Positions 3,728 through 59,980 of a stretch of DNA of 64,000 bases are shown piece by piece. Positions within the stretch are counted from its first letter, which is position 1. Each line of letters starts with the position of its first letter. The notes below the pieces were generated by a model. That model did no database searches, had not been told where the DNA came from, and saw only the letters and a list, made by a program, of their open reading frames with translations. The translations under genes and the position numbers were made by a program. The DNA comes from Terriglobia bacterium (lineage in GTDB: Bacteria; Acidobacteriota; Terriglobia; 2-12-FULL-54-10). The DNA is taken from positions 1,689,093-1,753,092 of the forward strand of contig OZ240237.1 in NCBI GenBank assembly GCA_965198025.1, written 5' to 3'.

Positions 3728-3777
3728 GCCAAGAGTTTACCACGAAGCCGCTTGAGGCGAGCCGCCGCCCTTCCACT

Positions 3778-5976: not shown

Positions 5977-6296
5977 TTCCTGCGGTAGATTCGGTTCTTG
6001 CGGTTCCTTCCGTTCCTTCGGAATACCAAATTCACTATAAAAACACTAAAAAAAGGGGCGTTTCGGGCCTTGCGGACGGTGCCTGGGTGGGGCCGGCGGC
6101 AAAGGGAACCAGCCCGGCACGCTGTGGCATAAAAATCACCCCCGGGACTTGGATAGCGGACCCGCGATTCGGGACTCGAAGAACAGACCCACGGCACAAC
6201 AAGCGTGCCGTGGCTACAGGACTCGAAGAATCAGTGCAGGCCGGAGGCCTGGCACTACTTGCGGGCTATACAGCAACGCTGAAAATGGTCTAGAAC
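5950..6296 (+). repeat. composite dispersed intergenic element, copy A: terminator hairpin + ggttcc-rich direct repeats + A/T-rich core + GC-rich tail ending gggctatacagcaacgctgaaaatgg
   Basis: About 190 nt are nearly identical to the reverse complement of 63420-63630 and the end motifs also match; a partial copy of the ggttc(c/t)ttcgg repeats occurs at 30470-30545. Confidence 0.6.
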
Positions 6297-9200: not shown

Positions 9201-9307
9201 GCCGGATCCTGTGCGTTCGATGAGCTGGATGAGTTCTGGCTCCACGTTCGGCCTGGACCGCACAGCACGAGGGCCAGCAAAACAGGCAAAGAAACTTTCC
9301 GAATCAC
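6290..9307 (-). CDS. TonB-dependent receptor-like outer membrane protein (plug + large beta-barrel, Acidobacteria type)
   Basis: Signal peptide; plug motif LSGLPLNGRSYNQLATLQAGV; 1005 aa; C-terminal barrel closure ...QIQFALRLSF; paralogous to the next gene. Confidence 0.85.
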   Translation of the reverse strand: MIRKVSLPVLLALVLCGPGRTWSQNSSSSSNAQDPAAPTVTEGPRAAGEEPSIERTADQPPSTSSPAEQISEIQLSGLPLNGRSYNQLATLQAGVSDPSGGSASRGGGSGSLTVVGGRSTSNNFLLDGTNIMDARNQVPRSAAGVQLGSDAVLEVQVLTSFGPEHGRGSGGVLDSITRSGTPQFHGTLFEYFRNSKLDARNFFDPGPEPTPFKRNQFGATVTGPIWKDQTFFMASFEALRDRLTETKVNFFPDALSRQGILTDCNGEVIQSLEVHPKIQPYLALYPLPNSACRGGGIAENRASDFLPTDESFFTARVDHKLSDQDSFFARYTFDDATGHRPDNNYLWQRRTESRQHYATLVGSHIFDLRRLIVVRLGYTRPVTRDEEFTLLDIPPELYFTPNAVAFGQIQIPSLTPMGTFPALPDRKVTNTFQAASDAVIQSGAHLWRMGLQAHRYRWDVGNFFMSAGQWRFNSFENFLLGGPQGTSVEVALPGGDNNRNFRQTLFALYLEDQYRVSQRFHLNLGLRYEYVSVLDEIHGKQTSLSDTLRDTEVLVDRIVRDNPSRFNFAPRIGWRWTPFAGQSTVLAGGFGIYYDQMLGYIGVGRKNTAPFNKVAVNPNFDARETFPNAIVGTTATIGGLPPHVHIVDYEDLKTPTVMRYNFSVQQELAGGLSLQASYVGARGNHLLRRYETNQFPYPITLPDGSLFFPDDCGKSEQPSPNCRPGAGPVNPAFGAISMLASDAQSFYNSLQLSANLRPMSGMSAQFRYTFSKSVDDDSNAPGSGLAQFGWRRTLDRGLSNFDIRHRIAMNYFWSPPLGTGQRWFNSGFLSAVFGGWRLGGIISYRTGVPSTVEVNVRTPGYLFEPTRPNLIPGQSLNPTEGVTEGCLGVAAGQELGTPQLYFDPCAFSLPPPGTLGNVGRNTIISPFVFNADISAQKEFSIDGQKRLQFRAEFFNLLNHPNFDRNEGNTVVVFSGNSGRRSSSAGRLSTTVGTARQIQFALRLSF

Positions 9308-9328
9308 CGTCTTCGCTTTCCGCCCTCG

Positions 9329-12300: not shown

Positions 12301-12499
12301 CGCTGTGTTGCGCCCCTGTGGCAATGTTCCGCGCTGTTACCGTAGCGCCCGCAACCGGTGAACCCAGAGCGTCCATCACCCTTCCCTGCAATCTCCCGGC
12401 CCCGTCTTGTCCCTGGAGCGGCGCTGGTTGCCCCAGGGCCAAAACCATCCCGGCAAGCAGACAAGCAACTCGGAATAGAACCCAAAAATCTTTCTTCAT
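9329..12499 (-). CDS. TonB-dependent receptor-like outer membrane protein with N-terminal carboxypeptidase-regulatory-like domain
   Basis: Signal peptide; CarboxypepD_reg-like segment GRVMDALGSPVAGATVTARN...ADGRFEFAAVAPGNYEI; same plug motif and the same C-terminus QIQFALRLSF; only 21 nt from the downstream paralog. Confidence 0.85.
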   Translation of the reverse strand: MKKDFWVLFRVACLLAGMVLALGQPAPLQGQDGAGRLQGRVMDALGSPVAGATVTARNIATGAQHSASTEADGRFEFAAVAPGNYEIAAVLGASSSVLRRALGAGEEATIELVLASRIASQDPVGRGDRAAAASVQQIDSTQLSGLPLNGRSYNQLATLQAGVTETASASASRGVGGGSLTVAGGRPTSNNFLLDGTNIMDSSNQVPRSAAGVQLGSDAVYEVQVFSSYFGPDHGRGAGGVVNSITHSGTPEFHGTAFEYLRNSKLDARNFFDPEAEPPPFKRNQFGFTLTGPVRKDTTYFLGSLEALRDRLSETQLDYFPDGQSRLGFPDANGNATVPLHPRIPDYLNLYPVPNSTLLGRGIAEHRSTIFLPTNEIFFTTRLDHEISDRDSMFARYTFDDATSLSKGDSTLYQTDATSRQQYATVVGTHIFNLRALTALRFGYTRSAQFRDSVGTDVPPELYLIPGTFKFGRISVSGMSTIGPESQHPDTGILNTFQFANDTFVQHGKHTLKWGFQAHRYRWDSDSQNSLAGEWTFNSLESFLQGGITGTHVRAALQGSDKAHAYRQTLLGLYFQDTIALRSNLHLSLGLRYEYTTLIHDQKNNTAYITDVWHDTEAFRGRLLSRNPSGKDFAPRIGLTWSPGNRAGTLIGLGFGVYHDPLMRYALFGRDASAPYYSRGVKTNFDASSFFPNSAAAVAGQPYDGKALDYFNPRVPVTYRYTASVQQSFPEDWRLQATYVGARGNHLIRAYEGVQFPFPILQEDGSLFFPPDTTQVNPHFSEFGFGGMDAQSFFNALQISGGRQTGSGMSVRASYSFSKSVDDASHPSQASTQFGFDRTLARGLSNFDVRHRLSFNYLYPLPFGGGQPLWNSGIASKVFGGWRIGGILSLRSGTPFTAGVSVRTPGYLFAATQPNLLPERRNNPVEGVSSGCADPRTGQPTIAAGIPLGGPEMYFDPCSFSVPLPGTIGNAGRNTLTAPWVFNVDVSVQREFTVDSKRRLQFRAEIFNVPNRANFGRALRGVFSGAYPGRPNPTAGRINETVTTSRQIQFALRLSF

Positions 12500-24752: not shown

Positions 24753-25733
24753 TCACTTCACACGTCCCAAGTACCCCTGCGCGAGCATCTGGACCCGAAA
24801 CGTCGCACCACGGCCGACGATGTATAGCATCCTCTTATCCTGACCGGAAAACGCGAGGTTCTGAGGCCGCCGGGAAACCGGAATGGTCCCGAGGTGTTCG
24901 CCCTGCGGGCTGAATACATCCAATCCGGCATTCGAAGTGGTATAGACGCGGCCCTCGTTATCAACGGCCAGGCCGTCGGCTCCGCTGCGGATCTCTCCGC
25001 CTTCCCGCTGGACTCCGGCATACTGGGCGAAGTTGCGGCGGTTTTGGAGCATTCCATCGGGCTGGACATCGAAGGCGATCATATACTCCCCACGCGAGTC
25101 GTTGACGTACAGGGTACGCTCGTCCGGGCTGAGTTGGATGCCGTTGGGCCGTGTGATGCCGGTGGCTACCTGGATTGACTCTCCACCCGCAGGAATGTAA
25201 TACACGGCTGCCGGCAAAGGTGGAGGAGGCGACCCCGGTTCGGCATTCGGTCCGGGATCGGTGAAGTAGACGCCACCCTTCTGATCCACCACGAGATCGT
25301 TGGGCCGGCCATAGGGTTTCCCCTGATAGTTGTTCGAGAGAACTTCTTCTTGACCGGCAGGATAGATAACCGAGACTGCCGTCTCGCCCGGTACCGTCTG
25401 CACCGCAATCAGGCGGCGCTCGGTGTCAAAGGCAAGGCCGTTAGCCCCGTTCGTATTGAAGAGCCATCTGGAACCGTTCCCGTCCTGGTCCACCCGCATG
25501 AGGCGGTTGCGCTGGGTTTCGGTAAAGACAATGCTACCATCCGGCAGGGCAATAGGGCCTTCCGTGCCCCGATACCCGTCATCGAGAAACTGAATCTTTG
25601 CGCCCTCCGCAATCACGCCCGGGATAGCTGTGGCATATGTGTCGTAATCGGGATTTCCTTCTGCTACCTGAGCCGAAGCTGTTACCGAAAACAAAAAGCT
25701 CCCGATCAGAACCAACATCGCTTTCAATTTCAT
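24753..25733 (-). CDS. SMP-30/gluconolactonase/LRE-like six-bladed beta-propeller (predicted lactonase/hydrolase), secreted
   Basis: Signal peptide MKLKAMLVLIGSFLFSVTASA; GGAGG RBS 7 nt upstream of ATG 25733; SMP-30 family blocks (TEGPIALPDGSIVFTE, PNDLVVDQKGGVYFTD, RPNGIQLSPDERTLYVNDS). Confidence 0.8.
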   Translation of the reverse strand: MKLKAMLVLIGSFLFSVTASAQVAEGNPDYDTYATAIPGVIAEGAKIQFLDDGYRGTEGPIALPDGSIVFTETQRNRLMRVDQDGNGSRWLFNTNGANGLAFDTERRLIAVQTVPGETAVSVIYPAGQEEVLSNNYQGKPYGRPNDLVVDQKGGVYFTDPGPNAEPGSPPPPLPAAVYYIPAGGESIQVATGITRPNGIQLSPDERTLYVNDSRGEYMIAFDVQPDGMLQNRRNFAQYAGVQREGGEIRSGADGLAVDNEGRVYTTSNAGLDVFSPQGEHLGTIPVSRRPQNLAFSGQDKRMLYIVGRGATFRVQMLAQGYLGRVK

Positions 25734-25819
25734 GGCCACCTCCTTCGATAGGAAATAGATCAAATCTCGACCAAGAGAATTCCAACAGCACGAAGATCGT
25801 GCCGTGCCCAACTGTGAGA

Positions 25820-26809
25820 TTACTTCACCCGGCCCATGTATCCCTGCGCCAGCATCTGGAGCTTGTAAGTTGCGTTGCGCCCAACCAGATAAAGAGTCCT
25901 CTTATCCGGCCCCGCGAAAGCAAGATTCTGAGGATGCTGCGGAGTATGGATGGTGCCGAGGTGCTGTCCTTGTGAGTCGAAGACATCCACGCCGGCATTT
26001 GAGGTTGTGTACACGCGCCCTTCGCTGTCCACAGCCAGTCCGTCAGCCCCGGCGGCGAAGCCCCCCTCGGGCCTCGTTCCAACGCCCACATACTCGGCAA
26101 AATTGCGGCGGTTGCGTAGCGTCCCGTCCGGCTGTACGTCGTAGGCAACCAGGTATTCCCCGCGTATATCGTTGACGTACAAGGTTTGCTCATCCGGGCT
26201 GAGCTGAATGCCGTTGGGACGGGTAATGTTATCCTGCGCACCATCGGCAACCAGCATGGCTTCCCCGCCCGGAGGAATATAGTAAACCCGCCGGGGACCC
26301 GGATCGGTGAAGTAGACCCCGCCTTTCTTGTCTATGACGAGGTCGTTGGGGCGGTCGAACGGTTCCCCCTGATACTCGCTCGCCAGGACCATCTCGCTCC
26401 CCTCGGGGTAGATGACGGCGATGCCGGTCTTGCCCTCGAGCGTCTGGGTGGCGATCAGGCGTCCCTCTGAGTCAAACCCGATGCCGTTCGATCCGCCGGA
26501 AGGCTCAAGGAAGATAGACGTGGTGTCGTCCAGAGCAATTCTGGTGATGCGGTTGCCGCGAATCTGCGAGAAGATCAGACTGCCATCCGGCAAGGGAGCC
26601 GGCCCTTCCGTTCCCTCAAACCCATCTTCGATGAATTCGATCGGTGTCCCGTCTGCAACGACGCCCGGAATGTCTGGAGCAATGCCATCGGCTGCGGGCG
26701 ACTCTGCGATTTGATCCTGGCTCATTTGTCCCTGGCTGCAAGCCATGAGGGACACAATTAACACGCCTGTCGGGAAGATACTCGCCTTCGATTTCAGATT
26801 TACCCTCAT
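25820..26809 (-). CDS. SMP-30/gluconolactonase/LRE-like beta-propeller lipoprotein, paralog of the preceding gene
   Basis: Lipoprotein signal ...LIVSLMAC; the same family blocks (TEGPAPLPDGSLIFSQ, PNDLVIDKKGGVYFTD, RPNGIQLSPDEQTLYVND) and the same C-terminus as the neighbour. Confidence 0.8.
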   Translation of the reverse strand: MRVNLKSKASIFPTGVLIVSLMACSQGQMSQDQIAESPAADGIAPDIPGVVADGTPIEFIEDGFEGTEGPAPLPDGSLIFSQIRGNRITRIALDDTTSIFLEPSGGSNGIGFDSEGRLIATQTLEGKTGIAVIYPEGSEMVLASEYQGEPFDRPNDLVIDKKGGVYFTDPGPRRVYYIPPGGEAMLVADGAQDNITRPNGIQLSPDEQTLYVNDIRGEYLVAYDVQPDGTLRNRRNFAEYVGVGTRPEGGFAAGADGLAVDSEGRVYTTSNAGVDVFDSQGQHLGTIHTPQHPQNLAFAGPDKRTLYLVGRNATYKLQMLAQGYMGRVK

Positions 26810-27019
26810 ATGTGTTTCCTTTTGCATTTAGAATGAGGGGTGTATTCCGACCCCCCCCTTGAGTTTTCTAATCGCCCGCCGTGAACCCTGGCTGCCTGCC
26901 AGTATACGGGTCTTTTCCTGATTTTGAAATGGGAAGCTGGGGATGGCAACCCGGATTTCTGCAGGGGCAATATGAGGCAACATTCTACCTGCGGGAGGCT
27001 TCGAGGCGTCGGAGCTATA

Positions 27020-34513: not shown

Positions 34514-34699
34514 CAGGTACTCCCGTGCCGTGCGAAACTCCGATTATAGACAAGAACGGACACGGAGACACGGTGATACTGAAATTCGGTAGTGTCTTAA
34601 TTTGGAGGGGAGGGCGATGGCTACTGAAAATCCGCCATGTTGACAATCTAATTGGAAGAACCGGATACTAACGGTACGGTGGGAAAGAGGGGGGGCGAG

Positions 34700-34978
34700 A
34701 TGTCACTGGCTGATCCCAGGGAAATCGCTAGAATTGCTGAGGAAATTTACAGGCAGAAATATAAAGAGCATTTCGAGAAAGCTCACTCTGGCAAGTTCGT
34801 TGTAATTGACATCCGAAGCAAAGAAGCTCATATAGGAGATTTCGCCGAGGAAGCGTTCGAGATAGCCAGAAAGAAAGCCCCCCATGGCGTATTCCACCTA
34901 ATTCGCATTGGCGCTCCAGGCGCATTCAGGGTGGGCTATGCCGGACAACAAGAAGACATCTGGGATTGGACACTTTGA
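34700..34978 (+). CDS. small hypothetical protein (~92 aa) of the kind found paired with retropepsin-like proteases (DUF5678-like; tentative)
   Basis: Strong RBS GAGGGGGGG before ATG 34700; protein MSLADPREIARIAEEIYRQKYKEHFEKAHSGKFVVIDIRSKEAHIGDF...; its 3' end overlaps the next ORF. Confidence 0.45.
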   Translation: MSLADPREIARIAEEIYRQKYKEHFEKAHSGKFVVIDIRSKEAHIGDFAEEAFEIARKKAPHGVFHLIRIGAPGAFRVGYAGQQEDIWDWTL

Positions 34979-35360
34979 CCAGCAGGGTAATGCTTGTTTG
35001 AAACTCCATATATGCGGGGTAAGGCATGATCCGCCAGGTCCAGAGTACGAAGCGATAATCGACACGGGATTCACTGGATTTATTCAACTCCCGTTGGCAG
35101 AAGCGTTGTCGCTTTCTCTTCCTTTGGAGGGAACCAACTCGGTGACATTGGCTGATGGAAAAAGCTTGGTCATGCTCACCGCGCTGGCTTGGGTGACTCT
35201 GATGGAAAGAACAGAAGCCGGAGTGGTTTTGTTGTCGATGTCCTCCAATGACATTCTTGTTGGAATGGATTTCTTGAGGCGATTTGAGAGATCATTGGTG
35301 GTTTCCAGACAATTAGGGGTTGTCCTGGTAGAAGAAAACGCGTGGCAGAAAAAGCCTTAA
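34938..35360 (+). CDS. retropepsin-like (clan AA) aspartic protease domain protein; start uncertain (34908 or 34938)
   Basis: Active-site motif IIDTGFTGFIQLP and a downstream LVGMDFLRRF flap/dimer region typical of bacterial retropepsin-like proteins. Confidence 0.65.
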   Translation: MPDNKKTSGIGHFDQQGNACLKLHICGVRHDPPGPEYEAIIDTGFTGFIQLPLAEALSLSLPLEGTNSVTLADGKSLVMLTALAWVTLMERTEAGVVLLSMSSNDILVGMDFLRRFERSLVVSRQLGVVLVEENAWQKKP

Positions 35361-35611
35361 TGCCCTGGAACCAGCCGGGACACCTCCCACACCTGCCTTA
35401 GCTGTCAAACGATTTTCCCATGAGGGCCTCTAGCGCCCTTCCAATCCCCTCGACGATACTCTTGTCCTCATCCTTCCAAGGATACCCGCCACGGGAAGAA
35501 ATCGATAGAGTGCTTAGCGGGATTCGCAGATGCCGGAACCTGCAGAACCCATCATGGAATCGCTCGACGATTTGGGCCTGCGGCCCTAAAGCCAAATCAG
35601 GACACTACCGG

Positions 35612-35830
35612 TTGGTGTCTTAATTTCAAAAGAGAAGAGCAGATCCCTCGTCGCCCCTCACCAACGGCTCGGCGAAACGACATCAATATGTCCGAAACGA
35701 CATCAATATGTCGTTTCGTGTCCTCGGGATGACACGGCAAAGGAGAGTGGATCGGGAGATGGAGCACAGGCCCTGGCGGGCTGTGCTCTATGGAGACAGG
35801 TCGGAGGCCTGTCGCTACTTTGCGGCTGCG
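35612..35830 (+). repeat. MITE/structured-element copy related to 32805-32950, plus a local direct repeat and perfect palindrome (gaaacgacatcaatatgtc x2)
   Basis: Shares gagcagatccctcgtc, gatgacacggcaaaggagagtggatcgggagatggagcacaggccctggcgggctgtgctc and gacaggtcggaggcctgtcgctactt with the 32.8 kb cluster. Confidence 0.55.
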
Positions 35831-35972
35831 CTACACCAAACCCTGAAAATGGTCTAGAATTCAGGCTGAGGAATTATCGAAGGCAACTGACAATACGAGA
35901 TACGCTATCGAAGGGACTTGCCATGTCGGGCCTCTGTAGCTACTATAGGGCTACATATTGGGAGGCGTCCAG

Positions 35973-36230
35973 ATGAGTTCCGATACGGTCGTTCGCGCTC
36001 GGATCGATAGCGACACTAAAGCACGGGCTACGGAAGCGCTTCAAGCCATGGGCCTGTCGGTATCCGATGCCATCCGTCTGCTGTTGCTGCGAGTGGCGAA
36101 TGAGAAACGGCTGCCATTCGCCGTCCGGGTGCCGAATGTCGCTACGGTCAAGGCAATGGAGGAACTGGGCGAGGGCAAGGGCAAACGCTTCGGCAACTCC
36201 GAGGAACTGTTCCGGGATCTCGGCGTCTGA
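35973..36230 (+). CDS. dinJ: type II antitoxin, DinJ/RelB family
   Basis: MSSDTVVRARIDSDTKARATEALQAMGLSVSDAIRLLLLRVANEKRLPF matches the RHH DinJ antitoxin fold; 2 nt upstream of the yafQ-like gene. Confidence 0.8.
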   Translation: MSSDTVVRARIDSDTKARATEALQAMGLSVSDAIRLLLLRVANEKRLPFAVRVPNVATVKAMEELGEGKGKRFGNSEELFRDLGV

Positions 36231-36232
36231 CA

Positions 36233-36499
36233 ATGCTGACCCCGGTTCGATCCACGCAGTTCAAACGCGACGTAAGAAGAGCCCAGAAGCGCGGCAAAGA
36301 TCTGATCAAGCTGCGGGTGTTGCTGGCGTCGTTGATCCAGCAGGAGCCGTTATCCGCCCGCTATCTCGATCATCCACTCAGGGGATTTGGGAAGGGCTAT
36401 CGGGAGGCCCATCTCGAGCCGAACTGGCTTTTGATTTACCGCACCGAAGGAGATGAATTGCATCTGGTCCGTACCGGCTGCCCATTCCGATCTCTTTAA
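36233..36499 (+). CDS. yafQ: type II toxin YafQ (RelE/ParE superfamily mRNA interferase)
   Basis: FKRDVRRAQKRGKDLIKLRVLLASLIQQEPLSARYLDHPLRGFGKGYREAHLEPNWLLIYR...LVRTGCPFRS is closely similar to YafQ proteins. Confidence 0.85.
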   Translation: MLTPVRSTQFKRDVRRAQKRGKDLIKLRVLLASLIQQEPLSARYLDHPLRGFGKGYREAHLEPNWLLIYRTEGDELHLVRTGCPFRSL

Positions 36500-36801
36500 G
36501 GAGTAAATCAGGAAGAGAGCTCTATTTATTTCGGCCTTATCTTTGAGAGCTTGCGACAGGCGCTACGACAGGAAGAGCACAGGCCAGTACGACAGGCCGG
36601 AGGTCTGTCGCTACCTGGGACCAGCGGGATGCTGGCGCTACGCTCTTCGGGATGACATGCTTTTGGTGGTGTCCTAATTTTTGCAAAATCAAGACACCGC
36701 CAAAATGGAAGATGCGGTGAAACAACCCTGTCGTTATAATAGAATAGTTACCAGACCGCCTTGGCGCTGCATTACGAAGCGACTTCCGGGAGGGCGAACC
36801 G

Positions 36802-38262
36802 ATGACACGAAGACAAGTTGGGATGGATTCCAAGGAAATTTTTTCCGCAGCCTTGGCCGGGATCATTGTGCTGAGCGCCGCCGTATTGTGGATGCGCTCC
36901 GTCCCGCTGCGCGAGTTACAAGCCAGCGCGGAGCGGGCAGGCCGGCAGCCGACGGGCACTGCGCAACTGGTCGCCGTGCAGACGATCCCGGGATGGGCGG
37001 AGGGCGAGATGTGCGAGTGGGTTCCGGCGAGCGCGGGATCGAACTTGCTGTCGTTGCTGCCGGAACCGCAGTCACAGGACGTGCCCACACGGAGCGGACC
37101 GGCACCGACACCAACCCCCGAGGAATTCGCAGAAGTCAACGCGCGTTCCCCGTTGCGCATGGTCAAGGACCACTATCCCTCCTACAGTTCGGTGGCGGTC
37201 GATTTGAAGAACAACGAAGTGATCATGACCGACGAGAGCACCTTCTCGATCCTGACCTATGACCGCATGACGAACACGCCGGCGAGCGCTGCGTTCAGCG
37301 AGCCGAAGCGGCGCATCGGCGGGCACCAGACCTGGATCGAGTATCAATGCGGCGTCTACGTGGATCAGGCCTCGGGGGACATCTATGCGGTAAACAACGA
37401 CACCGTGGACCGTCTGGTAGTCTTCTCTCGGGAGGCGCGGGGGGACGTGCCACCCGATCGCATCCTGCATACGCCGCACACGACCTACGGGATTGCGGTG
37501 GACGAGCCGCACCAGGAACTCTTTATGACGGTGCAGGAGGCGGCCGCGGTCAGCGTGTTTCGGAAGTTCGCCGCGGAGCACGAAGAACCGATCCGCCTGC
37601 TGCAGGGAGAGCGAACGCTGCTGGCGGACCCGCACGGGATTGCGGTGGACTCAACACGCGACCTGCTGTTCGTATCCAATTTCGGTTCCGTCTCCAGGAA
37701 AGACCCGACCCAGATCCGAGAAGACGCCACCGGATACTACGAGGGGACGGACAAGGCCAACTGGCCGCTGTCGCGGAACGCCGCCATCCCGGGGAGCGGC
37801 AAGTTCCTGCCTGCTTCGATTACCGTCTACCCGCGCGACGCCGAGGGTGACGTGGCCCCGATGCGCAAGATCGAAGGCTCCCGAACACAGTTGAACTGGC
37901 CGACGGCGCTGGTGGTGGATCCGGAGCGGGGAGACCTGTTCGTGGCCAACGATACCGGAGACTCCATCCTTGTGTTTGACGTCATGGCAAGCGGCAATGT
38001 GGCTCCCAAGCGCGTCATCAAAGGCCCACAGAGCATGATCAAGAGTCCCACGGGCGTCTTCTACGACTGGGAGCACGATGAGCTCTGGGTGGCGAATTTC
38101 GGGAATCACACGGCCACCGTCTATCCTGCCACGGCGTCGGGCGACGTGGCGCCTCTGCGCGTGGTTCGCAGCGCTCCGCGTAACACAGGCACGCCCAATA
38201 TCGGCAATGCCTATGCTCCGGCGTATGACTCGCGGCGTGATCAGATCATGGTGCCCAACTGA
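36802..38262 (+). CDS. membrane-anchored YVTN-like beta-propeller repeat protein, N-terminal part; ends at an in-frame TGA in the middle of a blade (probably one gene with 38263-39069)
   Basis: GGGAGGG RBS; N-terminal TM helix; repeated ~48-aa blades of the form GDVAP.R.I.G..T.L..P.G...D....EL.VAN......VF; the ORF stops at TGA 38260-38262 right after a ...MVPN turn. Confidence 0.7.
   Translation: MTRRQVGMDSKEIFSAALAGIIVLSAAVLWMRSVPLRELQASAERAGRQPTGTAQLVAVQTIPGWAEGEMCEWVPASAGSNLLSLLPEPQSQDVPTRSGPAPTPTPEEFAEVNARSPLRMVKDHYPSYSSVAVDLKNNEVIMTDESTFSILTYDRMTNTPASAAFSEPKRRIGGHQTWIEYQCGVYVDQASGDIYAVNNDTVDRLVVFSREARGDVPPDRILHTPHTTYGIAVDEPHQELFMTVQEAAAVSVFRKFAAEHEEPIRLLQGERTLLADPHGIAVDSTRDLLFVSNFGSVSRKDPTQIREDATGYYEGTDKANWPLSRNAAIPGSGKFLPASITVYPRDAEGDVAPMRKIEGSRTQLNWPTALVVDPERGDLFVANDTGDSILVFDVMASGNVAPKRVIKGPQSMIKSPTGVFYDWEHDELWVANFGNHTATVYPATASGDVAPLRVVRSAPRNTGTPNIGNAYAPAYDSRRDQIMVPN
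38260..38262 (+). other. in-frame UGA inside a beta-propeller blade: candidate selenocysteine codon or programmed readthrough site
   Basis: TGA is followed directly by GTG in the same frame; the identical arrangement (aac tga gtg ... cac ccg cag att gc) is seen in the paralog at 59111-59113. Confidence 0.4.
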
Positions 38263-39069
38263 GTGTCCCACCCGCAGATTGCCATCTTCGCCAGGCTGGC
38301 GGATGGAAATGCAGACCCGGTTCGAGCCATTGCGGGCCAGAAATCACTCCTCGCCCGTTCGACGCACGGCATCGCGTACGACCACATCCGGGACCTGATT
38401 CTGGTGCCGAATTTCTACGCGCAGGCGATTCAGTTTTTCCCGGGAGACGCGAATGGCGAAGTGGCCCCGGAACGGATCATTCAGGGTCCTCTGACCCAGT
38501 TGAACAATCCGGACAAGCTGATGCTCGACGCCGTAAACAACGAAATCCTGATCCCGATGCGGGACCGCCTGCTGGTGTTTGACGGCAGCGCCGAGGGGAA
38601 CGTGGCTCCCAAGCGCATCCTGGGTCCGCACCCGGACTTGGGGGCACAGGTGGTGGCCGCCGACCCAGTGCATGATCTGCTGGTGTTGGCGGGACGCGGG
38701 GGCGGCTACGGCGGGCGGTTCCAGATTTTCGACCGTACCGCGTCGGGCAACGACGAACCCAAGTGGGTGATCGCCGGTCCGAACACCGAACTGCAACGGT
38801 TCATGGGACCGATCGAGGTGCAACCCACACGCGGTTTGATCGTCGCCGGGATTCGGACCAATGCGGAATTGGGCGGCCCGGATAACTTCGTCGGGGTGTG
38901 GGACATATTCGCGCGCGGAGACGCCCGGCCGATTTACCGCATTGGAGGCCCTAACGTGCTCCTCGAACAAGTGCGCGGTATCACCTTGAATCCCAAACAC
39001 AAGGAGCTGATCGTTTCCGACAAGCGCATCAACGGAGTGATGACCTACTACTTCCCGGAGATTTTCTAG
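38263..39069 (+). CDS. beta-propeller repeat protein, C-terminal part; same frame as 36802-38262 and continuing the interrupted blade (VSHPQIAIFA...)
   Basis: Begins at GTG immediately after the TGA with no RBS; five further blades of the same repeat type; ends ...YYFPEIF like its paralog. Confidence 0.7.
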   Translation: MSHPQIAIFARLADGNADPVRAIAGQKSLLARSTHGIAYDHIRDLILVPNFYAQAIQFFPGDANGEVAPERIIQGPLTQLNNPDKLMLDAVNNEILIPMRDRLLVFDGSAEGNVAPKRILGPHPDLGAQVVAADPVHDLLVLAGRGGGYGGRFQIFDRTASGNDEPKWVIAGPNTELQRFMGPIEVQPTRGLIVAGIRTNAELGGPDNFVGVWDIFARGDARPIYRIGGPNVLLEQVRGITLNPKHKELIVSDKRINGVMTYYFPEIF

Positions 39070-39087
39070 CGCGGTTGGCCAGAAAGA

Positions 39088-39134
39088 GCAAAACCCCCTC
39101 CCCACTTTTCGTGGGGAGGGGGTTCTTGTTTGTC
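39088..39134. terminator. bidirectional intrinsic terminator (12-bp stem ccccctccccac / gtggggaggggg) between convergent genes
   Basis: agcaaaa ccccctccccac ttttc gtggggaggggg ttcttgtttgtc lies between the propeller gene end (39069) and the receptor gene end (39152). Confidence 0.65.
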
Positions 39135-39151: not shown

Positions 39152-42100
39152 CTAGAAGGTGAACTTCAGGCCGAACTGGATCTGCCGGGCGGTGGTGGTC
39201 AATTCGTCACCGGGAATGCGCCCGGCATGCGGGAGGTAGCGGGTGATTCCATCGCCGGCCGCATCCGGGTCGAATACATCTGCTTCCGGCAGACCCAGGT
39301 TTGGACGGTTGAGGAGGTTGAAGAATTCAGCCCGGAACGTCAGGTCCTTTTCTTCACCCATCTGGAACCGCTTGGTTAGCGTGAAGTCCAGGCTGATCAG
39401 CCGGGGTCCGATCATCGTGTTTCGGCCGATATTCCCGAAGAAGCCCGGTTGCGGCACAGCCAGTCCCAGCGGATTGGGCAGCGCGAACGCGTTCGGGTCG
39501 AACCACTGGTCCGGGCTTCCAATGATGGGGTTGAGGACATTGCCCGTATAGTTGGGATTGACATCAGGACGCTCCGAGCCCCCGCTATTCCCCTGCCGGG
39601 ACCAATCGAATCCCATGTCGGGGGTGAAGGGCTGTCCGGCCAGCGCCGTGAAGACCCCGCTGACAGTCCAGCCGCCCAGAATCGCATTGGCGGCGCCGCT
39701 CTCAAACTGGAACGGCAGCGGAAGCGTGCCCGTCGACGTGAACACGTGCGTGGAGTCGAAGGCCGCCCGCCCCCAATCTCTGGTCAAATTAAACGGGTCC
39801 TGGGAGGTGCCGGGGTCCCGCGTCCCGTTGTCGCTGCTGTTCAGACCGCCCTGTTGGTTCATGACCTTGGAATAGGTGTAGTTGGCCTGGAAGAGCGCAC
39901 CGGCAACGGTCTGGCGCGAAAACCGAACTTGCAGACCGTTGTAGTTGGCGTTCGCATCGTCGGCTCTCTGCCGGACGCGGTCCCAGTTGGGGTTGCGGCG
40001 GATGCCCGTGGTCGAGGTCGAGGGGCACCGGCGGGCAAGACTCGATACCCCATCCCACCCACCATACGGCGCAGGCAGGCAGACCTCGGAGCCGCCGCTG
40101 CGCGAAGGACGGTAAACGACGCCATTCGACAGGAGTTCGGGTATGGGGGAATTGAGCTGGAAGTAGCGTTCGAGGTGGCGCTGCTGGGAGCCGACGTACG
40201 CGATCTCGACCACGCCCCGCGCCCCTAATTGCTGCTGCAACGCCAGGGTGTAGCTGTACTTGGTCGGCTGGTCCATGTGCGGCAACAGCGGTTCAGTCCG
40301 CAGCCGCACGGCGTCGCCCGTCACAACCCGTGAAGTCAGCGGGAAGGTGTTCGCCAGCACATCCTCGTTCCGAATCCGGGCCCGCGAGTAGAAGGGAGGA
40401 TACTTCGACAGGCTCTGCGTGTAGTAGGAGGGCAGAATCAGGTCATGGTAAACGCCGACGCCGCCGCGCAACACCCGCGAAGCGCTGTCGTCCAACTGCC
40501 ACGCAAACCCGAACCGCGGCTGGACGTTCTTCCTGCCCATCTCCGTGAACGCGTACAGATCCGGTCCGATGTTATCCGGATATCCAGGATATCCAGAGGT
40601 TCTTTCCACCCTCCAATCCGGATGGAGACCTAATTGATTCTCGTTATGGTTGATATCGAGCAGATTGGAGATCCGGTTGTTGGCTTCGGTGGGGTCGGTG
40701 ATCCACTCCCAGCGCAGCCCCAAGTTCAGCGTCAGCCGCGGGTTCACCTGCCAGTCATCCTGGAAGTAGACCCCGTACATCGTGTTGCGGAGGCCCTTGT
40801 AGCCGGTCTGCCCGGGCAAGGTCCCGGACCACTCGTGAGGTTGAGCCAAGAGCAGGTTCTCGGGGGTCTCGAAGGCGTAAGCCGCTCGAGTATCCGTCTG
40901 CACGTTCATGTTGTTCTGGACGCGCCGGATCGAACCGCCCCACTTGAACGTGTGCGTACCCCGGACGTAGGTCATGTCGTCGCCCCACTCCCAGAGGTTG
41001 TATTTCCACCATCGGGGCCGCGTGCCGTTGCTCCCGCCTTCATCGTAAAACAGGATGCCGTTGATTTCTCCGACGATGATCTCGCCGATTACCTGCCCCG
41101 GGACCCAGGAAAGCCCCTCCAAGCCAGAATTCGTGAGAATTGCATCCTGGACCTGCGCCGTCCGATTGAGAGCGACTCGGGCCGAATTGACAATGGTCGG
41201 CGAGACCACCGAGTTGGCTTGCAACGTAATGTACTGCCGCCGCGCCTCGTTTGTATTCAGAAAGGCTTCTTGTTCATCGGGGTTATTCCGACTGTCGTCA
41301 TCGAAGGAGTAGCGGCCAAAGATGTTGGTCGAGTTCGTGAGCTGATGGTCCACCCGGCCCATGAAGTAATCCTGCCGGCTGGCTTGATTGGGCGCCGAAA
41401 AGTAGAGGCCCACCGAACTGTCCAGCCCCCCCGGGTCATTGGGGTCAAACGGCAAGATCTGGTGCGGGTCCGGATAGAGTGCAAAGAAGGGCACCACACG
41501 GGGGTCGGGCGTAACCATGTAGGTGCCGCTGCCGTCGGCCAGGGGCAGGATTCCCTGCTTGACCGCCGGGGTCGGCACGCGGACCTCTGTGCTTTGGCTC
41601 AACGCCTCGCGCAACCCTTCATAGCCGGCGAAGAAGAACGTCCGGTCCCGGATGATCGGCCCGCCGATGGTGCCGCCGAACTGGTTCCGGCGGAACGGCG
41701 GAACGTCCCCCGTGCCGTCCCCGTCGAAGTCCAGGTCATCCCGGAACTTCCGCGCATCGAACGCGCTGTTGCGCAGGAACTCGAACGCCGTTCCATGCAC
41801 CTGGTTGGTGCCGGTCCGGGTGACCGCCGAGATCACCGCCCCGGATGCCCGCCCGTATTCGGCGCTGAAGGTCGAGGCCACGATCTTGAACTCCTTGATC
41901 GTATCCACGCCCATGTTGGTTCCCGCCGCGCCGCCCGGCGTGTTGTTCGACGCATCGTTGATGTCCGTCCCGTCCAGCAGAAAGCTGTTCGACGTCGCCA
42001 GACTGCCCGACGCGCTGAATTTGTTTCCCCCCGGGCTGCCGTTAAAGCTCTGGCCCGACGTCGTGTACTTGACAATCCCGGGTTGCAGCAGCGCCAGCTG

Positions 42101-42559
42101 GTCGTAGCTCCGGCCGTTGAGCGGCAACTCCCGGATCGTCCGGTCGTCCACCAGGCCCGTGATGTTGGCGTTCGTCAACTCGATCAGCGGAGCCTCGCCA
42201 GTCACTTCCACCGTCTGCGTGACCGCCCCCACCTGCAGCGTGAAATCAACGACTGCGGCCCGGCCCACCGTCAGGACGATTCCTGAGCGGACCGCCGTTT
42301 GGAACCCATCGAGTTGGGCTCGCACTTCATAGTTGCCTAAGCTGAGCGCCGGAGCCGAATACCGCCCCGCTGCATTGGCTGTTACCGTACGGGTGATCCC
42401 CGTATCCTGATTGGTGAGTACCACATTGGCTCCCGGAAGCACCGCGCCCGATTCATCGCGCACCGTCCCCGAGATGGTTGCCGTGTTCACCTGCGCCCAC
42501 ACCAGTGAGCTGCAAAAGGCGAACGCCAACGCCAGCATTGCAATTCTTCGCGTCGCCAT
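39152..42559 (-). CDS. TonB-dependent receptor-like outer membrane protein with CarboxypepD_reg domain (1135 aa from ATG 42559)
   Basis: GGAGG RBS before MATRRIAMLALAFAFCSSLVWAQ signal peptide; CarboxypepD_reg segment SGTVRDESGAVLPGANVVLTNQDTGI; plug motif LPLNGRSYDQLALLQPG; C-terminus QIQFGLKFTF. Confidence 0.85.
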   Translation of the reverse strand: MATRRIAMLALAFAFCSSLVWAQVNTATISGTVRDESGAVLPGANVVLTNQDTGITRTVTANAAGRYSAPALSLGNYEVRAQLDGFQTAVRSGIVLTVGRAAVVDFTLQVGAVTQTVEVTGEAPLIELTNANITGLVDDRTIRELPLNGRSYDQLALLQPGIVKYTTSGQSFNGSPGGNKFSASGSLATSNSFLLDGTDINDASNNTPGGAAGTNMGVDTIKEFKIVASTFSAEYGRASGAVISAVTRTGTNQVHGTAFEFLRNSAFDARKFRDDLDFDGDGTGDVPPFRRNQFGGTIGGPIIRDRTFFFAGYEGLREALSQSTEVRVPTPAVKQGILPLADGSGTYMVTPDPRVVPFFALYPDPHQILPFDPNDPGGLDSSVGLYFSAPNQASRQDYFMGRVDHQLTNSTNIFGRYSFDDDSRNNPDEQEAFLNTNEARRQYITLQANSVVSPTIVNSARVALNRTAQVQDAILTNSGLEGLSWVPGQVIGEIIVGEINGILFYDEGGSNGTRPRWWKYNLWEWGDDMTYVRGTHTFKWGGSIRRVQNNMNVQTDTRAAYAFETPENLLLAQPHEWSGTLPGQTGYKGLRNTMYGVYFQDDWQVNPRLTLNLGLRWEWITDPTEANNRISNLLDINHNENQLGLHPDWRVERTSGYPGYPDNIGPDLYAFTEMGRKNVQPRFGFAWQLDDSASRVLRGGVGVYHDLILPSYYTQSLSKYPPFYSRARIRNEDVLANTFPLTSRVVTGDAVRLRTEPLLPHMDQPTKYSYTLALQQQLGARGVVEIAYVGSQQRHLERYFQLNSPIPELLSNGVVYRPSRSGGSEVCLPAPYGGWDGVSSLARRCPSTSTTGIRRNPNWDRVRQRADDANANYNGLQVRFSRQTVAGALFQANYTYSKVMNQQGGLNSSDNGTRDPGTSQDPFNLTRDWGRAAFDSTHVFTSTGTLPLPFQFESGAANAILGGWTVSGVFTALAGQPFTPDMGFDWSRQGNSGGSERPDVNPNYTGNVLNPIIGSPDQWFDPNAFALPNPLGLAVPQPGFFGNIGRNTMIGPRLISLDFTLTKRFQMGEEKDLTFRAEFFNLLNRPNLGLPEADVFDPDAAGDGITRYLPHAGRIPGDELTTTARQIQFGLKFTF

Positions 42560-43089
42560 AGTCACCCTCCTCCTGTTGGATTTGGTTAGCGGCGAAACCT
42601 GCTGCGCCTGGTTATTGTTCGGACGGAAGCCTGCTTCTGCACGAACTGTCACTATCCCAACCCGACCCGTAGAACTCAGTCTCTTCCCTGTCCAGTACGG
42701 CGGCTCTTCGGTTCCCGTTACCCAATTCCCCAAATTTGTAAAGACCTGACACCGCCTCTCGATGTTCATCATACGCCACTGCAGCCGAGACCACAATCAG
42801 CTTTGCAATGTATATTTGCCAATTAGCTATACGGGTTTTGGCAGTCCAAACCCTGAGTCTGAACCGGCAATTCGTCCAAATTTCGGTGTTCGAACCGCTA
42901 TGACGTGATGAGTCTTGCCGACATGGCAGAATGAGGATGTGCGGGCGAAGTGGTAGCCAAAACGTCTGCCTCTCGCGGTACTCCAGGTGGGGATTGACGA
43001 AGCCAGGACACGCGAAGTAGGATTGCCGTAACCGGGGAATCGGCCGGTGCTGTTACGTGTTCTGCTAATCGTCCGGCGAGTCAGGCAGG

Positions 43090-57192: not shown

Positions 57193-57691
57193 TGTTCTGT
57201 CCTGGAAGTACGGTGATTCAGTTTCGGAGCGCAACGGCGCTGGATTGGGGGGAGAGACGACGAGCCAATGCTCATTCATTGCGAGGAGGAGCGACGCCCA
57301 AGACGGCGCCGTTCCGCCCGAACTCGTAGAGCCGATGGACGTTGCTCACGCTACGGAAACGCGGCCCCGGAACCCGTTGCGATTTGGGAGGCGTGGACGC
57401 TGTCGGTTCCTCAACAGCCACGTCCATCGGAATGAATGAGCGTATTTCCGGGACAGGACACTAGCTCTCATCGTTTTCCCTCGGCGCAGGCAGGCAAAGC
57501 GCTCCGCAGCAGATCCATCGCGTTCAGAATTTGGTTTGGTGAGCTAAAGCAGCCTGTGCCAGCGCCTGAATCCGAGACGCGGCCCGAACCGATATTCAAG
57601 ATTGATGTCCTTCAGGAAGCGGTTGCTCTTACGAGCAATTCTAAGAGCGTATTGGGGAGACATGAGAATAGGAGATAGGAGGAGCGAGGTG

Positions 57692-59113
57692 ATTCGACAT
57701 TCCCGATCGAAGCGTAGAAAAATCCGTGAGATTGTAATTCTTGGTTCCCTGACCGCAGTTGCCGGCTGGCTTGTCTGGAGCGGAAGCAACGGAATCGATC
57801 TGGAGCGGGAAAGGACGGCTCATCCTCGCCTGGTTTCGATTCAGCCGCTGCCGGAGCTTGGTTCGGAAATGGCTGGCGCGATGTGCGAGTACATGCCCGC
57901 CAGCGCGACTCCCTCGCTGCTTCTGGCCCTGCAGGAATCGCAGGCGGCGCGGGAGCCATACCCAGGTGCTGCTGAGCAGGAAGCCGCCTCGAAGCGGCTC
58001 CCGATCCGGACCATGCGAGACCCCTACTCCTCTTTCAGCGCGGTGGCAGTGGACCCCACCAACGACGAAGTGGTCATGACCGACGAGAATCTGTTCAGCA
58101 TTCTCAGCTACAATCGCACAGACAACACGCCGCCTGCCGCTCGCATGACCGAGCCCAAGCGCATCATCCGCGGTGAGTCCACCAACATCGAGTTTCAATG
58201 CTCGCTCTATGTGGACCCGGTCAATGGCGACGTCTACGCCGCCAACAATGATACCCTTGGCAAGCTGGTCGTTTTCTCGCGGCAGGCCCGCGGCGACGTG
58301 GCCCCCGATCGTTCTATCAACACTCCCCACACCACTTTTGGCATTGCCGCGGATGAAAAGACCCAGGAGTTGATGCTGACGATCCAGGATGATGCTGCCG
58401 TGGTCACCTACGCCAAGACAGCCCAGGACGACGATCCGCCGATCCGGCTGCTGCAAGGCGAGAAGACCCTGCTCGCCGATCCGCATGGCATTACGATTGA
58501 CAAGAACAAAGACCTGCTCTACGTGTCGAACTGGGGCACGGTCAATATTCACCGTGCACCGCCGGATGGGGCCAAGGCCGGAACCCTCGGACGGGGCAAC
58601 GGGCATCCCAATTGGCCCATCGGCCGGAATTACACCATCCCGGGCTCCGGTGTGGCGAACCCGCCCTCCATCACGGTATATCCGCGAGATTCGCGCGGAG
58701 ATGTCGCTCCGCTGCGCGCCATCCAGGGTCCCAGGACGCAGTTGAACTGGCCCACGTCTCTCTCGGTAAACCCTGCCAACGGTGAGCTTTTTGTTGCTAA
58801 TGACACCGGGCACTCCGTCCTGGTCTTCGGCCCGGATGCCGACGGCGACGTCGCGCCAATCCGAGTCCTCAAGGGCCCCAGAACCTTGATCCAGAACCCC
58901 ACAAGTGTATTCTTCGACGAGAAAAACAACGAGCTATGGGTTGCCAATTTCGGCAACCACACGGCCACGGTCTATCGGCCGGACTCCTCTGGCGACACGC
59001 CGCCGCTTCGCGTGATCCGCAGTGCTCCGTTCGAAGCTCCTACTCCTATGCTCGGCAATCCGCACGTGGTCACCTACGACAGCCGCCGTGAAGAGATCAT
59101 GGTCGCCAACTGA
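57692..59113 (+). CDS. membrane-anchored YVTN-like beta-propeller repeat protein, paralog of 36802-38262, N-terminal part; ends at an in-frame TGA (track ORF starts at 57602; AGGAGG precedes GTG 57692)
   Basis: TM helix IVILGSLTAVAGWLVW; the same blade repeats and the conserved MCE(Y/W)xPASA segment; stops at TGA 59111-59113 after ...IMVAN. Confidence 0.7.
   Translation: MRHSRSKRRKIREIVILGSLTAVAGWLVWSGSNGIDLERERTAHPRLVSIQPLPELGSEMAGAMCEYMPASATPSLLLALQESQAAREPYPGAAEQEAASKRLPIRTMRDPYSSFSAVAVDPTNDEVVMTDENLFSILSYNRTDNTPPAARMTEPKRIIRGESTNIEFQCSLYVDPVNGDVYAANNDTLGKLVVFSRQARGDVAPDRSINTPHTTFGIAADEKTQELMLTIQDDAAVVTYAKTAQDDDPPIRLLQGEKTLLADPHGITIDKNKDLLYVSNWGTVNIHRAPPDGAKAGTLGRGNGHPNWPIGRNYTIPGSGVANPPSITVYPRDSRGDVAPLRAIQGPRTQLNWPTSLSVNPANGELFVANDTGHSVLVFGPDADGDVAPIRVLKGPRTLIQNPTSVFFDEKNNELWVANFGNHTATVYRPDSSGDTPPLRVIRSAPFEAPTPMLGNPHVVTYDSRREEIMVAN
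59111..59113 (+). other. in-frame UGA inside a propeller blade (second occurrence): candidate selenocysteine / readthrough codon
   Basis: aac tga gtg gct cac ccg cag att gcg; the downstream ORF continues in frame with no RBS and encodes the rest of the blade (VAHPQIAAF...). Confidence 0.4.
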
Positions 59114-59980
59114 GTGGCTCACCCGCAGATTGCGGCCTTCCCCAGGTTGGCGGAAGAAAACGCGAGAGCCACTCGGGCCATTGCCGGACAGCACACGCTC
59201 ATAACGCGCACCATTCACGACATGGCCTACGATCCGGTCCGTGATGAAATCGTCGTTCCCCAGTTCTACATGCAGGGCATACTCACCTTCCGGGGCGCTG
59301 CCAACGGGGATGAAGCGCCCATCCGCGTTATCAGCGGTCCTCGCACAGAGATTGCAAACCCGACTCGGATTGCCCTCGATCCCATCAATAACGAAATCTA
59401 TATCCCGATGAATCACCGCCTGCTGGTCTTCGATCGCTTTGCCGAGGGTAACGTAGCTCCCATTCGAACCATAGAAGGGCCGGATACGGAAATGTCCGCG
59501 GGCGTTGTCCAGGTGGACCCGGTGAACAATTTGGTCGTTGTTGGTGGATACAGCGTGGCCGGGGGTCGCGGAGATGCGGCGCAGATCGCCAGAGGACAGG
59601 TCCTCAGCGGAGACCGCAGCGGCCGGGGCGGCCAAATCCTCATCTTCGACCGGACTGCTGCCGGCAACGCCAGACCGTTGCGCATCATCCGCGGCCCCAA
59701 CTCGAAGCTCTCCCGCGTCGGGCTGATGGCCCTCTATCCACCCCGGCAGTTGATCGTCGCCAGCGTCCCGGCGGGCCAGACAACATCACCCGAAAATTTT
59801 GTCGGCGTATGGAGCGAGCTGGACGATGGCGATGTCCCGCCCCGCTGGTTGCTCGGCGGTCCGAACTCTGTTCTTCGTCAAGCCCGTGGCATCACGCTCG
59901 ACCCTGCGAACAAGAACGTGATCGTTTCGGACAAGTACGTCAATGCCGTGATGACATTTCACTTTCCGGAGATATTTTAG
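59114..59980 (+). CDS. beta-propeller repeat protein, C-terminal part; same frame as the upstream ORF; paralog of 38263-39069
   Basis: Homologous along its length to 38263-39069, including the C-terminus ...TFHFPEIF. Confidence 0.7.
   Translation: MAHPQIAAFPRLAEENARATRAIAGQHTLITRTIHDMAYDPVRDEIVVPQFYMQGILTFRGAANGDEAPIRVISGPRTEIANPTRIALDPINNEIYIPMNHRLLVFDRFAEGNVAPIRTIEGPDTEMSAGVVQVDPVNNLVVVGGYSVAGGRGDAAQIARGQVLSGDRSGRGGQILIFDRTAAGNARPLRIIRGPNSKLSRVGLMALYPPRQLIVASVPAGQTTSPENFVGVWSELDDGDVPPRWLLGGPNSVLRQARGITLDPANKNVIVSDKYVNAVMTFHFPEIF

Follow-up and report, generated by a model that had tools for sequence, protein, structure and literature searches.

Two genes, each interrupted in frame by a single TGA codon, were analyzed in a stretch of 64,000 nucleotides from a Terriglobia bacterium of the phylum Acidobacteriota (assembly GCA_965198025.1, contig OZ240237.1, positions 1,689,093 to 1,753,092), hereafter the window. 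We consider it highly probable that paralog B (57689-59980), and likewise paralog A (36802-39069), is one selenoprotein gene, and that the TGA at 59111 is a selenocysteine (Sec) codon. This reading is based on a single frame, the Sec/Cys homology of the site, a structure resembling a selenocysteine insertion sequence (SECIS), selection on both halves of the gene, and the presence of Sec machinery in related genomes. With somewhat more confidence than doubt, we further propose that both genes belong to an undescribed selenoprotein family, the first with a beta-propeller (NHL) fold, which would be extracytoplasmic and membrane-tethered and would have dozens of Sec paralogs per genome in Acidobacteriota of soil and groundwater (Bryobacterales, Solibacteraceae, and other Terriglobia).

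The open reading frames (ORFs) 57602-59113 and 59114-59980 form one frame, whose sole interruption is the TGA at 59111-59113, followed by GTG; the junction peptide is ...SRREEIMVAN-*-VAHPQIAAFPR. Paralog A has the same layout (36802-38262 plus 38263-39069, with the TGA at 38260-38262 and the junction ...RRDQIMVPN-*-VSHPQIAIFAR), and the two junctions have in common AAC TGA GTG NCN CAC CCG CAG ATT GCN. The paralogs are 53% identical at the protein level in the N half and 55% in the C half, and their synonymous divergence is saturated (dS 1.8-2.2). An earlier reading of this DNA, made from its letters alone (the sequence-only reading), had described the two ORFs at 57602-59980 as one frame with TGA and then GTG at the junction, the same in-frame UGA site in both paralogs, the preservation of its flanking nucleotides, and a long divergence (~55-60% identity); the coordinates and translations, the single alignment column occupied by both codons, the common junction sequence, and the measured identities and dS bear out each of these statements. 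The most likely start of paralog B is the GTG at 57689, which a GGAGG box precedes by 5-6 nt and which yields an N part of 474 residues, in agreement with public gene calls (474 + 288) and with close homologues of 474 residues; other in-frame starts are ATG 57662 and TTG 57602. When the window was scanned in six frames for ORF pairs joined by a single TGA, only paralogs A and B showed long ORFs on both sides of the TGA within one gene. A pair at 9331 corresponds to two separate TonB-receptor-like genes, not to one interrupted gene, and a pair at 35974 was dropped because its translation is not protein-like and its downstream ORF (36067-36456) has no Pfam match.

Special attention was given to the residue that homologous proteins carry at the position of the TGA. 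With the joined paralog B protein as a query, we examined the best 120 protein homologues and could sort them into two groups. The close relatives, about 30 in number (60-94% identical, ~470 residues), stop exactly at ...VAN or ...VSN, and the full-length Cys homologues, of 720-770 residues, cover 93-98% of the query. Cys is found at the TGA position in 77 of the 78 full-length homologues that match the junction motif, and the remaining one has Trp; in an alignment of 82 rows, this column contains Cys 76 times and Trp once. The sole Trp homologue, P0101 (JGI sample 3300071358, residue 441), may owe this residue to a gene caller that applied genetic code 4 to a TGA, in which case there would be no real TGG. 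At the genomic level, we located 80 loci in species-representative genomes through peptide patterns far from the junction (best 80 of 308 matches). They come from Acidobacteriota metagenome-assembled genomes (MAGs) of Terriglobia, Bryobacterales, and Solibacteraceae, except for a few labelled Binatia or Verrucomicrobiia, and together with the window their junction codon is TGA in 91 cases and TGC in two. A larger set, obtained with a relaxed motif and with Cys-type loci recovered from metagenomes, comprises 136 distinct related sites, with TGA in 99, TGC in 33, TGT in four, and no other codon. The internal stop is never TAA or TAG, while these genes terminate with TGA (38), TAG (37), or TAA (16). 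Sec and Cys forms are both present in one genome, DATMAF01.

The sequence on the far side of the TGA is maintained as coding sequence. An ORF of 257-298 codons, usually ending in ...FPEIF, directly follows the TGA in all 91 complete related loci. The ratio of nonsynonymous to synonymous divergence (dN/dS) was taken against the nearest orthologues, where dS is unsaturated, and it is 0.10 in the N half and 0.10 in the C half for paralog B against locus L001, and 0.17 and 0.09, respectively, for paralog A against locus L029. Purifying selection is therefore equal on both halves, with a dN/dS of ~0.1.

We folded the 66 nt from each UGA, counting positions from its U, and found a hairpin at +26 to +46 that is common to nearly all genes and has the form NNUUCGCCA-GGY-UGGCGRANN. 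Its 9-bp helix is 94% paired over an alignment of 88 sequences, shifting the 3' partners lowers the pairing to 29-51%, and the pair 27-45 covaries (AU 38, UA 11, CG 10, GC 9). A bacterial SECIS (bSECIS) has been defined by an apical loop of 3-9 nt, an upper stem of 4-16 bp, a G at loop position 1 or 2, a distance of 16-37 nt between UGA and loop, and a minimum free energy (MFE) of -7.5 kcal/mol or lower (PMC13188914). The hairpin of this family agrees with that definition, having a 3-nt loop GGY (or A-GGY-U), a 9-bp stem, and a 31-nt spacing, and its MFE is -7.5 kcal/mol or lower in 94 of the 95 Sec-type genes, both window copies included. Between the UGA and this hairpin lies a small upstream hairpin (+13 to +25), 93% paired in 88 Sec-type genes, where the codon GCG is used in 91 of 94 genes against a background of 35%; the SECIS may be a two-hairpin variant. 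An outer helix seen in the fold of paralog B (columns 2-9 with 57-64) was rejected as a general feature because it is only 61% paired across the family. A divergent sub-family with the motif N-U-V-A-Q-P-R (L052, L063, L080) keeps the stem and has a different loop. A search of the whole window against Rfam at gathering thresholds gave no match, nor did the region around the junction at E values up to 10.

Because the hairpin overlaps a conserved peptide, we tested the synonymous sites. Over the 15 codons after the UGA, synonymous choice is almost fixed: at its fixed site, Arg is AGG in 94 of 95 genes (7.3% in the rest of the same genes), Ala is GCG in 93 of 94 (35%) and, at another, GCC in 85 of 87 (42%), Pro is CCG in 94 of 95 (49%), and Val is GTG in 88 of 95 (43%), the last being GTG in 17 of 32 Cys-type genes (53%). 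The same Arg is encoded in 32 Cys-type homologues by CGC (11), AGG (10), CGA (4), AGA (4), CGT (1), and CGG (1); the comparison of AGG with other Arg codons between Sec-type and Cys-type genes (AGG in 10 of 31) gives a Fisher p = 2e-15, a value that treats related sequences as independent. A hairpin of -7.5 kcal/mol or lower is kept in 17 of the 32 Cys-type genes, and in the Cys-type, high-GC locus L078, FPRLADG is encoded as ...CGC CUU..., with codons unable to pair. The hairpin is under selection independent of the encoded peptide. As regards the Val codon GTG directly after the UGA (59114-59116 and 38263-38265 in the window), which is enriched to 93% in TGA-type relatives, the possible causes include an influence of codon context on how the UGA is decoded, a constraint from RNA structure, and use of the codon for re-initiation; the fixed GTG may have its own role in decoding. 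We also observed an intact hairpin, UUUUCGCCAGRUUGGCGGARGG at +26 to +46, in Cys-type (TGC or TGT) genes at L086, L091, L092, L097-L099, L101, and L106, as well as at L109, L117, L118, L122, L128, and L133, and its loss in Cys forms of higher GC content (e.g., L082-L087, L093, L095). The intact hairpins of Cys-type genes look like fossil SECIS elements left after recent Sec-to-Cys switches.

These results bear on the central claims of the sequence-only reading, namely that the conserved TGA functions as a Sec codon or as a site of regulated readthrough and that it is not a pseudogene lesion. The former is supported by the Cys homology, the hairpin, and the selection on both halves, and the latter by the intact downstream frames and the low dN/dS of the C half. 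The comparisons that it had suggested point the same way: where the TGA is absent, homologues carry Cys at the site; the two halves remain adjacent in all 91 complete loci of orthologs; the low dN/dS before the junction is matched by an equally low one after it; and both copies have the conserved covarying hairpin downstream of the UGA.

The decoding mechanism of the Sec reading is canonical bacterial Sec insertion. The ribosome would not terminate at UGA 59111; the hairpin 22-46 nt downstream, with its 9-bp stem and apical loop GGY, would act as a bacterial SECIS and recruit SelB-GTP-Sec-tRNA(Sec); Sec would be inserted, and translation would run on for 288 further codons. The predicted product would have an N-terminal anchor or signal, a tether of ~40 residues with a near-invariant Cys, and twelve four-stranded blades, with Sec in the first blade of the second propeller. 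Selenium incorporation is what we infer from these sequence features.

Sec machinery was found next to members of the family in a related genome. ARAGORN, run over all fetched loci, found a single tRNA-Sec, in a Terriglobia MAG (L052), with the anticodon UCA and confirmed by the Rfam model RF01852 (72 bits against a threshold of 47). The region L052:136-11626 is a "selenium island," in which two TGA-type family genes have selC-selB on one side and selD on the other (Table 1), and in which the variant motif N-U-V-A-Q-P-R occurs; selA was not seen within this locus. SelB homologues annotated from Bryobacteraceae are numerous, and a record of the Sec trait in Acidobacteria dates back to 2006 (PMC1794560).

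It is important to consider several observations that weigh against the selenoprotein reading. No tRNA-Sec, selA, selB, or selD was found within the 64-kb window (the tRNA scan of the window detected no tRNA of any kind), and the best 120 SelB homologues include none from the window's own contig. The hairpins of the window are at the weak end of the family (-8.0 kcal/mol in paralog B and -8.4 kcal/mol in paralog A, against a mean of -11.6), and the small upstream hairpin is degenerate in paralog A (3 bp, as judged from the alignment). The p-values take related sequences as independent, which is only approximately true, and the RNA conservation largely overlaps the conserved peptide F-x-R-L-A-D/E-G; the structural argument therefore rests on one strongly covarying pair, the synonymous fixation, and the contrast with Cys-type genes. 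The protein has no UxxC or CxxU redox motif and no thioredoxin fold, unlike most known selenoproteins, and its selenium is deduced from sequence.

Among the alternatives, we considered that the locus could be a split gene, in which the TGA is a true stop, the GTG a start, and the 474- and 288-residue polypeptides are translationally coupled and assemble afterwards. Public gene callers annotate exactly these two ORFs, and the GTG directly after the TGA is unusually conserved (88 of 95, against 43% in the background and 17 of 32 in Cys-type genes). Even so, we judge this arrangement very improbable, given that it would delete a residue that is Cys in 76 of 77 intact homologues, that an ordinary terminator would be expected to change to TAA or TAG, like the stops at the ends of these genes, and not to be TGA in 99 of 99 sites, and that it leaves unexplained both the covarying hairpin and the synonymous sites that are frozen here and relaxed in TGC-type genes. 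Of the two halves, the N half is anchored at its N terminus and the C half lacks a signal sequence, so that separate halves would presumably reside in different compartments. A recoding of the UGA to something other than Sec, by a tRNA(Sec)-like tRNA(Cys) inserting Cys, by an opal-suppressor allo-tRNA, or by near-cognate readthrough (e.g., as Trp), is given a small chance. It is favored by the report of 8/4 and 9/3 tRNAs, possible nonsense suppressors, in Acidobacteria and of SelC*-type tRNA(Cys) in other phyla (PMC5389517), by the Trp of P0101, and by the fact that sequence alone cannot separate Sec from Cys insertion through the same hairpin. However, SelC* tRNAs were not reported from Acidobacteria in that same study (PMC5389517), the tRNA-Sec beside two family genes in L052 is genuine (UCA; RF01852, 72 bits) and accompanied by SelB and by SelD, which makes selenophosphate, general opal suppression would read through ordinary TGA stops (those of 17 of the 40 long ORFs), and the Trp of P0101 is possibly a TGA under table 4.

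Two further explanations are already refuted. That the TGA is a nonsense mutation in an ancestral Cys-type gene whose remnants have not yet decayed has in its favor that TGC or TGT is only one transversion away; nonetheless, the same TGA occurs in 99 distinct genes from 32 assemblies, with saturated synonymous divergence and intact downstream frames of 257-298 codons, and the downstream dN/dS of ~0.1 is the same as the upstream one. The comparative data thus refute a pseudogene in practice, and we give it only a negligible probability. A genome-wide reassignment of TGA to sense (genetic codes 4 or 25) has in its favor the in-frame TGA itself and nothing more, and stop-codon usage refutes it, leaving a probability of practically nil: TGA is an ordinary stop in the window, where it terminates 17 of the 40 ORFs of at least 330 codons, it ends 38 of 91 family genes, no other gene of the window needs an internal TGA, and the GC content is 59%. 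The features on which the selenoprotein reading bears are listed in Table 1.

Table 1. Positions of the two genes in the window, their elements, and the genes of the L052 locus.
Feature	Position	Strand	Basis or remark
Paralog B, probable single selenoprotein gene, 763 codons (474 + Sec + 288), Sec475	57689..59980	+	One frame, single internal TGA
Paralog B, N-terminal hydrophobic segment IVILGSLTAVAGWLVWSG after Arg/Lys-rich start	57731..57784	+	Sequence; helix 11-29 in the AlphaFold2 model of P0004
Paralog B, conserved N-terminal Cys66, MCEYMPASA, in the tether between anchor and first propeller	57884..57886	+	
Paralog B, UGA read as Sec475	59111..59113	+	Cys alignment, codon counts, always TGA
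Paralog B, small upstream hairpin CCGCA-GAU-UGCGG	59123..59135	+	93% paired in 88 Sec-type genes
Paralog B, bSECIS-type hairpin CCUUCCCCA-GGU-UGGCGGAAG, apical loop GGU at 59145-59147, 31 nt after UGA	59136..59156	+	Fold, -8.0 kcal/mol
Paralog A, same gene type, 755 codons, Sec487	36802..39069	+	Identity to the L029 orthologue, 80% (N half) and 90% (C half)
Paralog A, conserved N-terminal Cys71, MCEWVPASA	37012..37014	+	
Paralog A, UGA read as Sec487	38260..38262	+	Alignment column shared with 59111-59113
Paralog A, bSECIS-type hairpin CCAUC-UU-CGCCA-GGC-UGGCG-GAUGG, apical loop GGC	38282..38306	+	70 nt after UGA folded; core -8.4 kcal/mol
L052 tRNA-Sec	136-227	-	RF01852
L052 SelB	261-2216	-	TIGR00475, 418 bits (cut-off 242)
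L052 CarboxypepD_reg + Vgb_lyase/SGL propeller gene	3525-5300		
L052 TGA-type family gene 1	5566-8139	+	
L052 TGA-type family gene 2	8170-10233	-	Variant motif N-U-V-A-Q-P-R
L052 SelD	10331-11626	-	NF002098, 511 bits (cut-off 299)

Regarding the architecture of the protein, the hydrophobic segment near its N terminus would be a signal anchor or an uncleaved signal peptide, a topology suggested by the sequence, and the protein is probably extracytoplasmic. The tether that follows contains a Cys kept in 78 of 80 full-length homologues, within the motif RLV..xPLP...xC-[E/x]-[WY]..A; the sequence-only reading had noticed that this Cys segment recurs in the two paralogs, as is indeed the case (Table 1). 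The Pfam NHL model (PF01436) matches the N part of paralog B with 38.4 bits and that of paralog A with 34.5 bits (cut-off 20), the Lactonase model (PF10282) gives 25.6 bits (cut-off 21.7) over only profile positions 33-153 of 344, and SGL (PF08450) stays below its cut-off of 26.3 with 22.7 bits. NCBIfam has no specific model for the family. P0004, a Cys homologue 52% identical to the window protein, was modeled with AlphaFold2, giving a predicted local distance difference test score (pLDDT) of 88.9 and a predicted template modeling score (pTM) of 0.86. The first 100 residues of the model, which contain the helix 11-29 and the conserved Cys, are of low confidence; the part that begins near residue 110 consists entirely of beta structure, its 48 strands forming 12 sets of four, and is therefore read as two tandem six-bladed NHL beta-propellers, the division between them being suggested by aligned lengths.

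In this model, the Sec/Cys position lies in the seventh blade, after the strand 474-479 (...EILVxN) and before the strand 486-490, so that the Sec motif N-U-V-x-H-P corresponds to the loop after the strand ...EI(L/M)V(A/P)N. By analogy with NHL topology, this loop is presumably on the propeller face that carries active or binding sites. Many polar residues (Asp, Asn, Glu, His) are invariant, including His271, His429, and His515, and 66 of 79 homologues keep the His of U-V-x-H. A Foldseek search against the PDB returned only generic tandem WD/YWTD propellers, with TM-scores of ~0.28. Sec would be the catalytic residue; as a tentative suggestion, which we hold with more doubt than confidence, the chemistry could be that of a selenol/thiol redox center or of a metal-dependent active site on the face of propeller 2, with the N-terminal Cys as a possible partner.

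The size of the family was counted in a library of representatives clustered at 50% identity, in which the N part has 645 relatives at E values of 1e-30 or lower and 3474 at 1e-10 or lower. The best 150 representatives include 26 that end exactly at the Sec site and eight that are full-length with Cys, and at least 26 sub-clusters below 50% identity can be distinguished. TGA-type genes are present in 32 assemblies, and one MAG (JADFGZ01) has at least 18 distinct ones among the best 80 of 308 matches. Two or three of these paralogs often stand in tandem, an arrangement that suggests local duplication as the means of expansion; triplets were observed at L074 (4727, 7249, 9909) and L060 (2747, 5044, 8148), and tandem pairs at L017, L018, L021, L026, L053, L055, L072, and L075. 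Public records split these genes, and the C halves appear as separate hypothetical proteins of 260-300 residues; a protein 100% identical to the C half of the window gene is annotated separately in the ENA assembly ERZ25072076, and some homologues bear the names "beta-propeller fold lactonase family protein" or "YncE." A catalogue of May 2026 with 119 prokaryotic selenoprotein families or subfamilies (PMC13188914) contains no NHL, propeller, or lactonase entry, and no description of the family was found in the deep-Sep paper or in the searched literature on selenoproteins with NHL, propeller, Acidobacteria, or Acidobacteriota. The protein family, its fold among selenoproteins, and its expansion in Acidobacteriota appear to be new.

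The family shares with canonical bacterial selenoproteins (FdhA, SelD, and peroxiredoxin-type proteins; PMC13188914) an in-frame UGA where homologues have Cys, a stem-loop directly 3' of the UGA whose small apical loop opens with G and lies 16-37 nt away, the coexistence of Sec and Cys forms, sometimes in one genome, and the mis-annotation of the gene as two ORFs. It differs from them in being a tandem NHL propeller instead of a thioredoxin-like or molybdopterin fold, in its motif N-U-V-x-H-P instead of UxxC/CxxU, and in the unusual expansion of a single family (at least 18 TGA-type paralogs in one MAG). With known six-bladed NHL propellers (TRIM2, TRIM71, Brat, NHLRC2, SOQ1, peptidyl-alpha-hydroxyglycine alpha-amidating lyase, and the PknD sensor) it has in common the Pfam NHL matches above the cut-off, but the present proteins join two propellers in a single chain that follows a membrane anchor, and the identity is only 11-23%. 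To our knowledge, none of these structures has Sec or an equivalent conserved Cys; NHLRC2 and SOQ1 combine an NHL propeller with a thioredoxin-like domain, a link to thiol chemistry that is a resemblance only. The weak Pfam matches also recall the SMP-30/gluconolactonase/LRE-like (SGL) proteins and seven-bladed lactonases, although they are short (~90-120 residues) and marginal. Genuine SGL genes do occur in the window, as two tandem single-domain SMP-30/gluconolactonase-like propeller genes (24753-26827, minus strand); they score 125-133 bits, have no TGA, and belong to a distinct propeller family. A recently predicted outer-membrane-barrel selenoprotein is likewise a non-thioredoxin protein of the cell envelope, but its fold is unrelated.

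The window is ordinary chromosome. It carries housekeeping genes (BamD, RecG, TilS, H+-pyrophosphatase, and 2-oxoacid dehydrogenase E2 and E3) and catabolic genes (HpaB, UbiD-type decarboxylase, amidase, tannase-like hydrolase, formamidase, ornithine cyclodeaminase, and RidA). Among the examined loci, we found no conserved operon partner of the family. The commonest neighbor is a TonB-dependent-receptor-like outer-membrane protein, at 34 loci in all orientations and distances; it was rejected as a partner, the association being probably background because three such genes occur within the 64 kb of the window itself. These are large genes with CarboxypepD_reg and OMP_b-brl_4 domains (6290-12499 and 39152-42796, both on the minus strand), and all, including the one near paralog A, are intact ORFs without an internal TGA, unlike the propeller genes; the first two lie in one frame, a TGA and 21 nt apart, yet they are separate genes. 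Other neighbors vary (amidohydrolase, PanB-like, DASS transporter, Zn-ADH, and a small CxxCH protein). The last is a small exported protein with two CxxCH motifs and no Pfam match, seen at L109:1147-1671 and at three other Cys-type loci; its gene follows certain Cys-type family genes on the same strand at a distance of less than 300 bp, and it is a possible electron-transfer partner. A further "neighbor" cluster was spurious, as it consisted of antisense ORFs inside the propeller genes; those of the window (57641-58813, 390 residues, and 38344-39105, 253 residues, both on the minus strand) are artefacts of GC-rich coding sequence. Finally, a 2.2-kb segment upstream of paralog A (34600-36800) has a GC content of 0.49-0.55, against 0.62-0.66 on either side; its ORFs do not exceed 150 residues, its translations are not protein-like, and it has no match in Rfam.

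The known prokaryotic selenoproteins are mostly small redox proteins of thioredoxin fold or subunits of metalloenzymes, and they are richest in anaerobes. A large family of propeller enzymes located in the cell envelope would widen the picture of where and why selenium is used. Beyond what the sequence-only reading had proposed, our analysis adds the SECIS hairpin and the scale of the family, with hundreds of genes and many per genome. Since public records split these genes in two, hundreds of genes of abundant soil bacteria would be mis-annotated and selenoproteomes undercounted. The Sec forms, the Cys forms with a fossil hairpin, and the Cys forms without it would constitute a natural series for the study of Sec-to-Cys exchange and SECIS decay, and the Sec/Cys pairs would be ready controls in work on what this uncharacterised enzyme family does. 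If the proposal is true, mostly aerobic soil bacteria would be among the most selenoprotein-rich prokaryotes by means of a single family, and the supply of selenium could control a large share of the envelope enzymology in these Acidobacteriota.

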